A stretch of 64,000 nucleotides of DNA from Candidatus Macondimonas sp. (GCA_035325645.1 DAOKZK010000008.1:559-64558), one strand, 5' to 3'; positions 50,566 through 54,579 are shown, counted from the first letter of the stretch. Notes: generated by a model not told the origin, from the sequence alone. A program made the numbers and translations.

Positions 50566-50877
50566 TTACACAAACCCTTCCTCAACGAGCCGGCTACCCG
50601 TCGAGGTGATCTCGTGTCGCTGACCGGACCCGCCGACCACTCGGCACCAGCTTTCAGTGATCAGCTTGGCGTGCGGGCCATTGCCCTCCAGCCAGTAGCT
50701 GAATCCGCCGTACATGCCGGGTATAGGGAACCACGACTTCGGCTCGGCAGCCGTGAGCAGCGGAGCCAACTCGGGCAGGACGACGCCGTGTTCGTCGATC
50801 AGGTCGGCGGCGCGGCCGCGGATGACGGCATGGAAGTGCCGCTGGATGGCAAGCAGCGATTCTTCAGTGATTTGCAC
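50566..50877 (-). CDS. hypothetical protein (103 aa)
   Basis: GTG start with AAGGAGA about 10 nt upstream. There are no TM helices and I recognise no family. It is last in the minus-strand gene string. Confidence 0.5.
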   Translation of the reverse strand: MQITEESLLAIQRHFHAVIRGRAADLIDEHGVVLPELAPLLTAAEPKSWFPIPGMYGGFSYWLEGNGPHAKLITESWCRVVGGSGQRHEITSTGSRLVEEGFV

Positions 50878-50951
50878 CCGCGAGCTCTCCTTTCGCCGAA
50901 CGACTTGGCGAACCCGGTTGTCGCAGGCGATCCGGGTTTGGCATGGCCGTG

Positions 50952-51395
50952 CTACTCATGCGGGTAAACGATGCAGTAACCGCGCCCGTAGTCCTTGCTT
51001 ACTGGCTTGCCGTCAGAGCGTTTGCATAACGCAACCTGCGGGAACGGCGAACATAGCTTTTTCACTCCCGTGACGGAGTAAATGGTTCTGGCCGTGCCTT
51101 TCTCGACCTCTTGGCGTGCAGCGTCATCGGGTGCGTCGCATAGCAGTTTTTCGAGGAGCTCAGTGTCCTCCTCTACGGGAGGGATGATGACGATGTTTTC
51201 GAGTGTGCCCTCGTAGGTTATCTCGCCTGGTGACTCCCCAACGATGAAGTAAACGACGACGTGCTTGCCAGCGATGTGGGCATCTTCGATGCTTCGCCAA
51301 GAGACGTTCGAGTAGAACGTGACAGCCCCGCCTTTCTTCGATGCTGGATCAAGGTGCGCCGCGTAGTTCCGGGTAAGGACCGCGATCTTCGACAC
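50952..51395 (-). CDS. hypothetical protein (147 aa), lower G+C than its neighbours
   Basis: The ATG has AGGAGA 6-7 nt upstream. Few competing alternate-frame ORFs are present, consistent with lower G+C. I recognise no family with confidence. Confidence 0.55.
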   Translation of the reverse strand: MSKIAVLTRNYAAHLDPASKKGGAVTFYSNVSWRSIEDAHIAGKHVVVYFIVGESPGEITYEGTLENIVIIPPVEEDTELLEKLLCDAPDDAARQEVEKGTARTIYSVTGVKKLCSPFPQVALCKRSDGKPVSKDYGRGYCIVYPHE

Positions 51396-51517
51396 GTCGT
51401 TTCTCCTGCGTCAACGGGAATCAACCCACCCAGACCCTGCTGCATTGATTCGTCCGAATCAGCGACCGTTTCATGAGCAGCATCGGGTCGGTCCGCATTG
51501 CCTCTCCCTTGCCTCTG

Positions 51518-52663
51518 TCAGGAGCCGGGATAGCGATCGAGGAAGGCGCGCACGGCCGGCGCATCCTCATCCTCGAACCGAACCGGGGATCCTGAAAGCA
51601 ACAGGTCATCGGCGATTTGTTCCAGCACATCCCGCAGTTCCAGCGGTGCGAGCCAGCGCTCCGGGATGGCGGACAGGCCCTGTACGGCGCCCAGCAGATG
51701 GCCGGTGAGCAGTCCCGTTGAATCGCTGTCGCCGCTATGGTTGACGGCCAGGACGACGCCTTCTTCGAAGTTCCGCGCGCTGAGCGCGCAATACACGCCG
51801 ATCGCCAGGGCTTCCTCGGCGACCCAGCCGCCGCCGAGCTGCGCGAGGGCATCCGGACTGGCCGGCTCCCGGTCGGCCAAATGCTGCGCCCGGCGCAGCG
51901 CTGCCGAGGTTTCCTCATGGCCCGCGCGGGTTTCGAGCAGGGCGAGCACGGTGTCGATCGCAGCGTCCAGATCCCAGTCCGTCAGCGCGCAGAAAATCAG
52001 CGCCGCGTAGGCGCCCGCGCTGAGCTGGCCGGTCACGTGGCCGTGAGTGAGGCCGGCCGTTTCGCAGCCCATCTCGAAGCAGGTGCGCAGCCGGTCGGAG
52101 CGCGCGGCATCGGCAGAATCGGCTGCCTGGGCGGCGACGAACATGCCGACCGGCGCCACGCGCATGATGCCGCCGCAGCCCTTGCTGTCGTTGCAGGCCG
52201 GCTGGCCGATGTCGCGCATGGCGCGCAGGGCGTTGAGACAGGTATGCCCCGGTGCCCGCCGCGCGTGCAGGTCGATCTGGCGGATCAGCCAGCCGTCGAG
52301 AGCGCCCTGCTGCAGCGGATGGGATTCGCCTTGGGTGTAGAGCCAGCGCAGATAGGCGCGCGCCATAACGCCCGGCGGATGACAGATTCCCTTGGAGTCG
52401 AGCCGCGTCTGAGCGCGCAGCAGCCCTTCGGCGGTGAAGGCCGCCATCTGGGTATCGTCGGTGATGGCACCGATGCGGCCATAGGCCGGTGCCATGTCGC
52501 GGATGCCGCCCGGTCCGTAGGCCCGCAAAATTTCTGCGCGTTTCAGAAACTCGACCGGCGCGCCCAATGCGTCGCCGACGGCGCCGCCGAGCAGACAGCC
52601 GTGGAACCGCGCTCGCCGTGTTTCGGGAAGCAGTGAATTGGTGATGTATGAATCGGCGGTCAT
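51518..52663 (-). CDS. ADP-ribosylglycohydrolase family protein (DraG/ARH-like)
   Basis: The ATG at 52663 forms an ATGA overlap with the upstream stop, inside track ORF 51518..53734. Motifs are GGAVGDALGAPVEF, ITDDTQM and NHSGDSDSTG. Confidence 0.85.
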   Translation of the reverse strand: MTADSYITNSLLPETRRARFHGCLLGGAVGDALGAPVEFLKRAEILRAYGPGGIRDMAPAYGRIGAITDDTQMAAFTAEGLLRAQTRLDSKGICHPPGVMARAYLRWLYTQGESHPLQQGALDGWLIRQIDLHARRAPGHTCLNALRAMRDIGQPACNDSKGCGGIMRVAPVGMFVAAQAADSADAARSDRLRTCFEMGCETAGLTHGHVTGQLSAGAYAALIFCALTDWDLDAAIDTVLALLETRAGHEETSAALRRAQHLADREPASPDALAQLGGGWVAEEALAIGVYCALSARNFEEGVVLAVNHSGDSDSTGLLTGHLLGAVQGLSAIPERWLAPLELRDVLEQIADDLLLSGSPVRFEDEDAPAVRAFLDRYPGS

Positions 52664-53631
52664 GGCTTGCTCGTCACGAAATGATGGGGATTCAGAACCG
52701 ACTCGCCGCTCCAGCGATAGGCCGCCAGGGTGCCGCCTGGCAGGGCCACGCTGTAGTCCACGCAGGCCATCTGAGGCGCCAGGATCGCCGGCGTGCCCCT
52801 CATCCAGTAATGACCGAAGAAGAGCGGCTTGCCTTGCGGCAGGGGAACTTGCGCGTGGTGCGGAATGGCCAGCTCGGGAAGCTGACGGCGTTGTGCGTCG
52901 GCCAGGAGGGCGGTATCGCGGTAGGTGCGCGCGTTTTCGTCCCACCAGCGAACCCGGACGCTGGTACGTTCGATGCCGTCCTTGTCCTGAAAACGGTGCG
53001 AGGGCGGCAGCGGGATCTCGATGCCTTTCAGGAGCGCCTCGACGGCCTTGAAGACACTGGGCGTGGCGCTCGTTTTTTCCGCCCGATCGGCGGGCTCCAG
53101 CGTCGCCGGCGCGAGCAAGTCGTCTGTGAGCTGGTGTTCGGCGGTGAGATGGGGCGCAAGCCAATCCATCAAGCGCTGGTGCCAGCAGGCGTGTACGACG
53201 CGGATGCCGGGCAGATCGAGCCACAGGGGAAGCGTCTTGAACCAGGCGATGATGTCGCTGTGCAATGGAGAGTCCTCCCCCACTTCCGCGAGGAAACGCT
53301 CGTGTTGCCGGAGGTTCTTGTGGCCCCAGTCCGGATCGTGGCGTGAACGGAGGAAGTCGCCGGAGCCATCGGGATGCGGCGTGTGCCAGGCGATGGCATT
53401 GAGTTCGTGATTGCCCATCACGGCCAGCGCAGCGCCCGATTCCACCATGGCGCGCACCAGTTCGACGGTGCGCCGCTGCTGCGGTCCGCGATCGATGAAG
53501 TCGCCGACGAAAACGGCCGTTCGCTCGCTGTGGCGCCAGGCGCCGTTCGAGGGCGCGTAATCCATTTTTCGCAGCAGCGCTTCCAGCGCTTCGGCGTGGC
53601 CGTGGAGATCGCCGATGATGTCGTAGTGCAT
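52660..53631 (-). CDS. calcineurin-like metallophosphoesterase (PrpE/ApaH/Ser-Thr phosphatase-like)
   Basis: 323-aa ORF with motifs IIGDLHGH, VGDFIDRG and GNHE. Confidence 0.85.
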   Translation of the reverse strand: MHYDIIGDLHGHAEALEALLRKMDYAPSNGAWRHSERTAVFVGDFIDRGPQQRRTVELVRAMVESGAALAVMGNHELNAIAWHTPHPDGSGDFLRSRHDPDWGHKNLRQHERFLAEVGEDSPLHSDIIAWFKTLPLWLDLPGIRVVHACWHQRLMDWLAPHLTAEHQLTDDLLAPATLEPADRAEKTSATPSVFKAVEALLKGIEIPLPPSHRFQDKDGIERTSVRVRWWDENARTYRDTALLADAQRRQLPELAIPHHAQVPLPQGKPLFFGHYWMRGTPAILAPQMACVDYSVALPGGTLAAYRWSGESVLNPHHFVTSKP

Positions 53632-53640
53632 GAGCTTGCC

Positions 53641-54579
53641 TCAGTGGACCGTGCGGGGTGATGCCCCGGCGCGCAGTGAGAGACCGTCGAACTGCGCGGC
53701 GAGTGGGTCGTCGAGACCGTCCGCGATCTCGCAAAAGCGCCGCAGCGTGTCGGCAAAGACCTCATCATTCGACGGCAACATGGGGAAAACCGAAATGGCG
53801 GCGATGACGTCGCGCGTGTGGTAGACGTGCATGTGCCCGATGCTGACATTGATGTCGTTCAGATACGCGTACAGTTCGGGCGTCGGTTGTACCCCAATGA
53901 CCAAGGGTGCAAAGAGACGGACCGAAACCGGGTTGTCGAGCAGGCGTATGAACACCGATACGTCGCCGAACCGGATGCCGATGTTGCCGTCGATGTCGTA
54001 GCCCAGATCCCCGATTCCCGTGACGCGCGACACGGTGGCCAATAGCTGGCTGGCGCGTTGTTCCTGTGTCTGGCGATCCGGCGCCGGCGCGTGTTTGATG
54101 CCGAGCGTCGCGAAGACCAGGGCGTTGCCGTCGGTATCGAACGCCATGTATTCGAGAAAGCCGGGGTGCGGCAGGCCAAGCACGTCGATGAGAGTTCGCA
54201 CGACGAGGGCGGCGATCCGCTGCGGCTCGACAGGGCTGGCAAAGTCGATGAAGAAATTGGGCGAGCCGTCGGGATCCCGTTCCGGTGTGGATGTTTTGGC
54301 GGGCCCGGTGGGTGCGCGCCAGCCGTTCTCGAGCAGTTTGCGAATCTGTTCGTCGGTGAGCCGATTTTCAGCCGGGAGGAAGGCGTTGCTGCTCACCTCT
54401 GCGCGCATGCCGAAGGCGCCCTGGCCGGCGAACTGGATGAAGCGCGCGGATTGCTTGACCGCGAGGATGAGAAACTGGTCTTCCCGCAGCGCGGCCAGTA
54501 CGGCCGCCAGCCGGTCTTCGAAAACGGGCCAGTCGCGCGAGATGCGCGGCGCCGGCCCGGGTGGCTCGACGGTGCTCAT
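53641..54579 (-). CDS. YbjN / T3SS-chaperone-like (TY-Chap-type) two-domain protein
   Basis: 312-aa ORF. The C-terminal half (IRFGDVSVFIRLLDNPVSVRLFAPLV...ELYAYLNDIN) resembles YbjN-type chaperone-fold proteins. The N-terminal half (FIQFAGQGAFGMRAEVSSNAFL...DPDGSPNFF) resembles the module fused to them in 'TY-Chap' proteins. The family call is from memory; the ORF itself is solid. Confidence 0.6.
   Translation of the reverse strand: MSTVEPPGPAPRISRDWPVFEDRLAAVLAALREDQFLILAVKQSARFIQFAGQGAFGMRAEVSSNAFLPAENRLTDEQIRKLLENGWRAPTGPAKTSTPERDPDGSPNFFIDFASPVEPQRIAALVVRTLIDVLGLPHPGFLEYMAFDTDGNALVFATLGIKHAPAPDRQTQEQRASQLLATVSRVTGIGDLGYDIDGNIGIRFGDVSVFIRLLDNPVSVRLFAPLVIGVQPTPELYAYLNDINVSIGHMHVYHTRDVIAAISVFPMLPSNDEVFADTLRRFCEIADGLDDPLAAQFDGLSLRAGASPRTVH

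Follow-up and report, generated by a model that had tools for sequence, protein, structure and literature searches.

The subject of this work is a group of five minus-strand genes in a 64,000-nucleotide stretch of DNA from Candidatus Macondimonas sp. (GCA_035325645.1 DAOKZK010000008.1:559-64558), referred to below as the window. The genes lie between dtd and a small convergent gene, and the first three encode, in the order of transcription, a protein with two TY-Chap domains, a calcineurin-like metallophosphoesterase (MPE) and an ADP-ribosylglycohydrolase (ARH); two trailing genes, called here orf147 and orf103, follow them (Table 1). A preliminary description drawn from the sequence alone had noted the five genes, their spacing, the motifs in their translations, a drop in G+C content and the Shine-Dalgarno sites, and all of these were confirmed by the list of open reading frames (ORFs), the G+C profile and the sequence. 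As argued below, the first three genes may well be a small host system that would undo ADP-ribosylation imposed from outside, and the two trailing genes are not part of it.

Table 1. Genes and segments of the locus and its surroundings, with positions counted from the first nucleotide of the window.
Feature	Position	Strand	Size and remarks	Basis
TY-Chap3+TY-Chap1 protein	53641-54579	-	312 aa	ORF list
MPE	52660-53631	-	323 aa	ORF list
ARH	51518-52663	-	381 aa; start is the ATG at 52663	
orf147	50952-51395	-	147 aa; GTG start	ORF list
orf103	50566-50877	-	103 aa; GTG start	ORF list
Cassette with orf147 and orf103	~50480-51517 (approximate boundaries)		~1.05 kb	Presence/absence comparison among close relatives
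dtd	54751-55197		Neighbour of the operon	Pfam Tyr_Deacylase
Convergent small gene	~49968-50466	+	Split in the window	
Type III-like restriction-modification (R-M) locus	58875-63878	-	4.3 kb from the operon	

The coordinates place the TY-Chap and MPE genes 9 nt apart, give a 4-nt overlap (ATGA) between the MPE and ARH genes, and leave 122 nt between ARH and orf147. The reading frame of ARH is open far upstream of the ATG given in Table 1, and the same start was chosen by an independent gene caller on the source contig. In the related locus L057, which has about 90% DNA identity to the window, the MPE/ARH overlap is kept and the gap between the TY-Chap and MPE genes is 8 nt. The three genes form a translationally coupled, operon-like unit, as the preliminary description had proposed, and their linkage recurs in other genomes. 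The G+C content was 0.557-0.587 over positions 50950-51550, compared with 0.64-0.73 on either side; this dip spans orf147 and the intergenic region, and orf103 lies outside it. Shine-Dalgarno sequences (AGGAG and AAGGAG) stand ahead of the GTG starts of orf147 and orf103. Scans for promoters and terminators gave counts that were not above those in shuffled sequence.

The family assignments made earlier (TY-Chap, calcineurin-like phosphoesterase and ARH) were upheld by Pfam matches, which exceeded the gathering cutoffs for all three proteins, and by alignment of the MPE and ARH motifs to solved proteins. In the first protein, Pfam TY-Chap3 was matched over residues 15-142 (96.8 bits, cutoff 27, 1.8e-27) and TY-Chap1 over residues 177-299 (77 bits, cutoff 27, 1.4e-21), together with a weak match to YbjN. 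Homologs fell into 55 clusters, each with the same two domains or with TY-Chap3 alone, and a TY-Chap profile search returned 3354 representative clusters. When N-terminal extensions of TY-Chap proteins were inspected, nine of ten carried no Pfam domain and the tenth was a fusion to Trypsin_2: in this 967-aa protein (P0306), a trypsin-like peptidase domain is joined to TY-Chap3, which is consistent with TY-Chap3 serving as an adaptor that binds protein substrates. The TY-Chap protein belongs to the same fold superfamily as YbjN and the type III secretion chaperones (CesT and the YopN chaperones), but it differs from them in its two-domain architecture (one domain is a circular permutation according to section 3.8 of PMC9503650) and in having no secretion-system genes nearby.

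The second protein matched Pfam Metallophos with 47.3 bits (4.3e-12), and the motifs GDLHGH, GDFIDRG and GNHE in its translation align to those of the Pnkp phosphatase domain. Its NCBIfam matches were partial, being confined to the N-terminal ~80 residues, and fell below the curated cutoffs: 66.7 bits for Pnkp (cutoff 750), 53.5 bits for PrpE (340) and 49 bits for ApaH (176). When the family profile was compared with solved structures, the closest was the phosphatase domain of C. thermocellum Pnkp (4j6o, 1.4e-17), followed by ApaH, and the match to 4j6o includes the C-terminal GGKLxAYR motif. Across 12 homologs, motifs I to V (GDxHG, GDxxDRGP, GNHE, VHACWH and GHYW) are invariant, and these homologs share an insert of ~120 residues between motifs IV and V with a conserved RxRWWD. 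The MPE is therefore like Pnkp, PrpE and ApaH in its lambda-phosphatase-type motifs I-V and in the GGKLxAYR motif, but unlike them in the insert and in having no kinase or ligase partner. It is a distinct family inside the Pnkp-phosphatase/PrpE/ApaH (lambda-phosphatase-like) clade.

The likeness to Pnkp bears on an explanation in which the locus repairs nucleic-acid ends, the ARH freeing the phosphate ends of RNA or DNA from ADP-ribose and the MPE then healing a 3'-phosphate or 2',3'-cyclic phosphate. Pnkp supplies both the closest solved relative of the MPE and its best NCBIfam match, nucleases and helicases are found at related loci, and ARH-like hydrolases reverse phosphate-end ADP-ribosylation of RNA according to the account in PMC11833690. 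However, the NCBIfam match to Pnkp is the short, low-scoring one given above, the kinase or ligase partner is missing, and the conserved partner of the MPE is a chaperone with a peptide-binding fold. We regard end repair as highly improbable.

The third protein gave a match to Pfam ADP_ribosyl_GH (PF03747) of 243.8 bits (3.9e-72) that covered model positions 1-287 of 287, and its translation contains the motifs GDALGAPVEF, DDTQM and GDSDSTG. Full-length alignments were obtained to DraG and to the T. thermophilus ARH 2cwc, and in them the metal-site motifs match (GDALGA-VEF, TDDT, G-G--MR-AP and GD(S/A)D(S/T)TG). In NCBIfam, DraG (TIGR02662) was matched with 84.5 bits against a cutoff of 337.05, and Tri1 (NF041672) with 62.6 bits against a cutoff of 490, the match to Tri1 being limited to the C-terminal motif region. 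Because the scores of the MPE and the ARH are far below the equivalog cutoffs, both proteins belong to distinct subfamilies.

The TY-Chap, MPE and ARH genes are functional and under purifying selection, and they are less constrained than a core gene: the ratio of nonsynonymous to synonymous substitution rates (dN/dS) relative to L057 and to a second related locus, L164, was 0.26 and 0.25 for TY-Chap, 0.19 and 0.25 for MPE, and 0.25 and 0.23 for ARH, compared with 0.08 and 0.11 for dtd.

Whether the three genes co-occur elsewhere was evaluated with two sets of loci. For the TY-Chap-anchored set, one genome per GTDB species (185,579 representatives) was scanned with a pattern-based TY-Chap alignment search, which gives a lower bound; the MPE-anchored set consisted of 80 loci from a metagenome scan. 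Neighbouring genes were mapped by tblastn and counted as nearby within 6 kb of a TY-Chap anchor or 4 kb of an MPE anchor. The selection of ORFs at these loci was guided by G+C content at third codon positions and is imperfect, so that the counts are lower bounds; clustering of ORFs without gene calling was set aside, because spurious overlapping frames dominate in high-GC DNA.

It was found that the genes recur together in both sets. The scan of species representatives gave 56 TY-Chap loci, in beta- and gammaproteobacteria, Acidobacteriota, Gemmatimonadota and Actinomycetota, of which 14 had an MPE nearby, 14 an ARH, 8 both, 11 a WYL regulator and 4 an HD_4 gene. Restricting this set to the 32 loci with a two-domain TY-Chap protein gave an MPE in 11, an ARH in 10, both in 7, a WYL regulator in 10 and HD_4 in 4. 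Around the 80 MPE anchors, an ARH was found in 18, a WYL regulator in 8 and TY-Chap in 4, and among the closest relatives of the MPE an ARH was nearby in 14 of 27. ARH genes are rare in bacteria and would be expected in well under 1% of random 8-gene neighbourhoods. Set against this expectation, which is general knowledge and not a formal null, the presence of ARH in 22-25% of the loci amounts to a large enrichment.

The order TY-Chap, MPE, ARH is repeated in L003, L005, L006 and L009, and other arrangements were also found: MPE-ARH-...-TY-Chap in L014, which is from Rhodoferax antarcticus, MPE-TY-Chap-ARH in L039, TY-Chap-MPE with an oppositely oriented ARH at its side in L017, which is from Thiocystis minor, and in L025, and an ARH adjoining TY-Chap in L026 and L054. 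Contigs L057 and L058 have ~90% identity to the window and the same gene order over 49000-56500, sharing cstA-msrA-dtd followed by TY-Chap-MPE-ARH. Two ARH subfamilies, of ~267 aa and ~381 aa, alternate beside the MPE, and the slot beside TY-Chap holds Metallophos, a 157-aa NUDIX hydrolase or a SpoT-like HD_4 protein, depending on the locus (NUDIX or HD_4 in L061-L063, L004, L010, L021 and L029, compared with Metallophos in L003, L009, L025 and others). This alternation of ARH subfamilies, together with the interchangeable slot, points to functional coupling rather than inherited adjacency.

Regulators and further enzymes accompany the related loci. Around a TY-Chap protein 56% identical to that of the window, the gene order was WYL / vWA / TY-Chap / NUDIX / unknown / REase-ARP (REase, restriction endonuclease), and related TY-Chap loci carry WYL+WCX regulators and HD_4 phosphohydrolases. 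Among the MPE-anchored loci, NrtR-type Nudix regulators with a winged helix-turn-helix (HTH) are divergent from the MPE in nine, and further WYL+WCX regulators, HAD 5'-nucleotidases and one SNF2 helicase were also found. The association of TY-Chap, MPE and ARH is real but modular, and this fits the description of such loci in section 3.8 of PMC9503650.

Two other observations were made at these loci. An uncharacterised family of ~334 aa without a Pfam match is repeatedly found directly behind ARH or NUDIX genes (L003:12512-13537, L008:5525-6523, L014:7844-8860, L027:7389-8393 and L061:9509-10525, as well as L081, L094, L106 and L126), and histone-deacetylase-like genes (PF00850) recur in L009, L014 and L024. 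We did not find either of them named in section 3.8 of PMC9503650.

The variable slot beside TY-Chap suggests that no association is better conserved than that of TY-Chap with a nucleotide phosphohydrolase, and ARH is found in about a quarter of the TY-Chap loci. On this basis, the conserved core might be TY-Chap plus a nucleotide (pyro)phosphohydrolase, and not the ARH: the chaperone would present nucleotide-linked protein adducts, which could be ADP-ribosyl or perhaps AMP- or RNA-linked ('RNAylated'), the phosphohydrolase would cut the pyrophosphate of the adduct, and the ARH would be an optional finishing enzyme. The copy in the window, which has no regulator and adjoins dtd, would then be a constitutive proteome-repair module and not an inducible immune system. 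We consider this version distinctly unlikely.

The same interchange was also weighed as evidence for catabolism of a small molecule or signal, in which the ARH and MPE would degrade free ADP-ribose derivatives or dinucleotides (O-acetyl-ADP-ribose, ADP-ribose-1''-phosphate, ADP-ribose-derived immune signals or Ap4A-type alarmones) and the TY-Chap protein would be a regulator or scaffold. NUDIX and SpoT-like HD_4 proteins are both nucleotide pyrophosphohydrolases, several members of the PrpE/ApaH/Pnkp clade cleave dinucleoside polyphosphates, and regulators of the NrtR and WYL types, which sense nucleotide-like ligands, occur at related loci. ARH3-type enzymes, moreover, hydrolyse O-acetyl-ADP-ribose. 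However, the closest linkage of the MPE is to the gene for a two-domain chaperone of peptide-binding fold, a relative of which is fused to a trypsin-like protease, and section 3.8 of PMC9503650 argues that the glycohydrolase domains prefer macromolecular adducts. Small-molecule catabolism is an unlikely explanation, although it carries the most weight among the rivals, ahead of an endogenous switch, end repair and a five-gene module, in that order.

An endogenous regulatory switch was considered as well. Here the ARH would undo the marks of an unlinked transferase of the cell itself, as DraG does for DraT, and the MPE would erase a second mark. The ARH has in common with the DraT/DraG pair its superfamily, the motifs of the binuclear metal site and the chemistry of protein de-ADP-ribosylation; DraG is its best NCBIfam match, and those of DraG are among the solved structures closest to it. 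The setting among housekeeping genes without a repressor would suit such a switch, and NifZ on the contig of a close relative suggests a diazotroph lineage. In contrast to DraT/DraG, however, there is no DraT nearby, and the partners of the ARH are a phosphoesterase and a chaperone rather than a transferase; the DraG score is far short of its cutoff, as given above, and no ADP-ribosyltransferase (ART) is called within 10 kb on either side. The related loci, furthermore, are modular and patchy, with WYL regulators, nucleases and helicases, which is the pattern of conflict systems, and the family was found in only 56 of the 185,579 species representatives (a lower bound). An endogenous switch is, in our judgement, rather improbable.

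The two trailing genes had been suggested to be the missing effector, target or immunity components of the system or, failing that, an unrelated later insertion. Neither protein has a family in Pfam, NCBIfam, PADLOC or PHROGs. For orf147, there were 15 homolog clusters with 49-100% identity and 40 invariant columns, and the length differences among relatives are in-frame indels; dN/dS relative to close relatives was high (0.58-1.02), calculated from few sites. An AlphaFold2 model (predicted local distance difference test score, pLDDT, 86.3) was matched by Foldseek to YTH domains (E 6.6e-4, probability 1.0) and to ASCH (TM 0.53), and orf147 is thus a free-standing protein whose predicted fold is PUA-like (YTH/ASCH/EVE-type). 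Distant orf147 homologs (L064, L066 and L069) lie after an APH/NTP_transferase pair, which we take to be amgK/murU-like, beside hda, or among unrelated genes, and no ARH, MPE or TY-Chap gene is near them in these three contexts.

The orf103 protein has 337 homolog clusters of ~104 aa with 60-80% identity (P0071-P0190 among the homologs), from Planctomycetota, Phycisphaerae, Bipolaricaulota and Pseudomonadota, and its invariant residues include H16, G57-G58-F59, Y61, G83-S84-G85, R87 and H88. The AlphaFold2 model (pLDDT 91.5) has a long N-terminal helix and a five-stranded sheet, for which Foldseek gave no match better than E 0.3 in PDB or BFVD. The gene is intact in the window but frameshifted in relatives, by +1 in L057/L058 and, separately, by +2 in L164. 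Its five sampled contexts elsewhere are unrelated to the system and unlike each other.

The comparison of close relatives gave the decisive evidence on these genes. The cassette that carries them is present in the window, in L057/L058 and in L164, and absent from L165, which encodes a TY-Chap protein identical to that of L164 and in which 68 nt separate ARH from the convergent gene. This difference identifies ~50480-51517 as a cassette variably present in close relatives, and it explains the dip in G+C content. No direct or inverted repeats were found at its flanks and there is no transposase or integrase nearby, and a mobile-element mechanism was therefore rejected. A tblastn survey detected neither gene at the 56 TY-Chap loci, and at the 80 MPE loci it detected orf147 nowhere and orf103 once, as a partial copy in L087.

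In L087, a 2.3-kb metagenome contig, the partial orf103 homolog (14-187, 74% identity) is situated at the edge of the contig, and 68 nt separate it from an MPE homolog downstream (255-1199, 60%), a gene order unlike that of the window. No MPE or ARH was found around the two orf103 homologs with sufficient contig context, P0077 and P0085, and the adjacency in L087 is therefore probably a coincidence.

A five-gene module, with orf147 and/or orf103 as effector, target mimic or immunity partner, would be in keeping with the common strand, the short gaps, the good Shine-Dalgarno sequences, the adjacency of orf147 to ARH in three related lineages, the L087 contig, and a predicted PUA-like fold of the kind known to read modified nucleic acids. 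It is contradicted by the absence of the cassette from L165, whose operon is otherwise identical, by the independent orf103 frameshifts in L057 and L164, by the lack of either gene at the TY-Chap loci and of all but the L087 copy at the MPE loci, and by the homolog contexts, all eight of which (of eight sampled) are unrelated to the system. We consider such a module largely refuted and give it hardly any credence. It was likewise found that the small genes do not travel with the system. Both orf147 and orf103 are real genes, not components of the system but unrelated cargo; the fallback of an unrelated later insertion is the one that these data favour, and the variable presence of the cassette may reflect insertion or deletion.

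The three-gene architecture has been described before. In section 3.8 of a computational study, Iyer, Burroughs, Anantharaman and Aravind (Viruses 2022, PMC9503650) predicted 'ARG-centric' conflict systems (ARG, ADP-ribosylglycohydrolase), defined by a glycohydrolase without a linked transferase or sirtuin. According to that section, a phosphatase is coupled in ~55% (rhodanese-phosphatase, calcineurin-like, HD or HAD 5'-nucleotidase), a predicted peptide-binding chaperone is frequent (vWA, SseB or TY-Chap1/2/3), a Nudix- or WYL-HTH one-component repressor occurs in ~42% and so is not obligatory, and Macro, NADAR, REase, helicase or ARPP genes are variably present. The proposal made there is that these are host systems that undo virus-imposed ADP-ribosylation, and phyletic patterns are argued to show that ARG domains prefer macromolecular adducts. 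TY-Chap3 and TY-Chap1 were themselves defined from these systems, so that the Pfam families that identify the present locus were built from that work. The arrangement is therefore not new to the literature: both the architecture and the interpretation, which the preliminary description reached independently, were published as a prediction in 2022 in that section.

The locus in the window has the main parts of this class. The central ARH is represented by a full-length PF03747 match with catalytic motifs aligned to solved ARHs, the Metallophos gene overlaps its start, and the TY-Chap3+TY-Chap1 gene is just upstream of the MPE gene. In agreement with the preliminary description, no recognisable ART is encoded nearby: by Pfam, no gene called within 10 kb on either side belongs to an ART or SIR2 family, although several small ORFs in this interval have no Pfam match, so that a novel ART among them is conceivable. 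The window and the published systems thus share an ARH without a linked transferase, a calcineurin-like phosphatase and an adjoining TY-Chap chaperone, and the accessory genes described for the class (WYL/Nudix regulators, HD and HAD phosphatases, REases and helicases) also occur at loci related to that of the window. The copy in the window is unlike the typical system of section 3.8 in having no regulator and no accessory effector and in its housekeeping setting beside dtd.

There are also experimental parallels in other hydrolases. Tri1 is an ARH-type immunity protein to the type VI secretion system (T6SS) ADP-ribosyltransferase Tre1 and follows the same erase-to-protect logic. The nearest experimental precedent, as presented in PMC11833690, is that of stand-alone bacterial PARG hydrolases that protect against an exogenous RNA-targeting ART toxin; in the immunity to RhsP2 described there, the shared logic is that a hydrolase erases ADP-ribose placed by an exogenous transferase. 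Unlike Tri1 and PARG immunity, the locus in the window has no adjoining T6SS effector and has additional phosphoesterase and chaperone partners.

Taken together, these results lead us to favour, with somewhat better than even confidence, the interpretation that 51518-54579 encodes a minimal chromosomal version, without a regulator, of the predicted ARG-centric conflict systems; reversal of toxin- or phage-imposed ADP-ribosylation, which had been put forward earlier, still appears to be the best reading of the locus. In such a system, a foreign ART from a phage or a competitor's toxin would modify host macromolecules, most likely proteins. The TY-Chap3/TY-Chap1 protein would bind the modified or destabilised polypeptide and present it, and the ARH would cut the bond between ADP-ribose and its target by means of a binuclear metal site. 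The MPE would then destroy the released ADP-ribose or a related nucleotide, probably at the phosphoanhydride or terminal phosphate, which would make the reversal irreversible and remove a reactive product; phosphoanhydride cleavage is favoured because NUDIX and HD_4 hydrolases occupy the same slot at other loci. Since there is no adjoining Nudix/WYL repressor, expression is presumably constitutive or from a dtd-proximal promoter. What the analysis shows is the identity of the families, intact catalytic motifs, tight coupling of the genes, purifying selection, recurrent and modular synteny and the lack of any linked transferase; the reaction sequence, the substrate and the role in the cell are inferred.

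Several results weigh against this interpretation. The ARH is below every equivalog cutoff, and its substrate is not readable from the sequence. Among solved structures, the nearest to the MPE is an enzyme of nucleic-acid ends, which makes a protein target less than certain. Nor do the three genes always occur together: our queries detected no ARH at most TY-Chap loci and at most of the more distant MPE loci. On the source contig, no WYL or NUDIX gene is within 10 kb of the operon on either side, there is no accessory Macro, NADAR, REase, helicase or ARPP gene (the trailing genes being cargo), and the immediate neighbours of the operon are the housekeeping genes dtd, msrA, cstA, emrAB and nadC. 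A search of PADLOC-DB v2 gave no significant match for any of the five proteins (best DpdE, E 0.029). There were no TY-Chap relatives in 2.9 million viral contigs, which is neutral for host defence and provides no phage link. Literature searches found no experimental follow-up of the ARG-centric class.

Two other assignments were rejected on the basis of these searches. A phage origin was rejected because no TY-Chap relative was present among the viral contigs, and membership in a known defence system because PADLOC gave nothing and PHROGs gave only generic families (NinI-like phosphatase and ARH).

The surroundings of the operon were of interest for a possible defence island. A Type III-like R-M locus is found on the same contig (Table 1), consisting of a ResIII helicase of 867 aa, a 72-aa ORF, a zeta-toxin/AAA_33 kinase-like gene and an N6/N4 DNA methylase of 556 aa. 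In L057, nosL/nifZ/nitroreductase genes are found at this position instead, so that the segment varies between strains. A variable defence segment thus lies near the operon, which counts in favour of the conflict-system interpretation, but the immediate neighbours are housekeeping genes.

On the other side, the small convergent gene encodes 165 aa in L057, L164 and L165; in the window, one extra nucleotide within a run of C near 50131-50141 splits it into ORFs of 57 aa and 81/141 aa. The decay of this neighbour had been recognised correctly, as the comparison with relatives shows, but its 'CigR-like' label was not confirmed, a Pfam search having returned no family.

If the predicted function is right, the locus would be an example of bacterial immunity that works by erasing the covalent marks of a pathogen on the host and not by attacking the invader. 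The copy in the window would be a compact test case for the ARG-centric systems, with three genes, no regulator and no extra effector, and it is directly clonable. That orf147 and orf103 are dispensable cargo shows which genes to clone.

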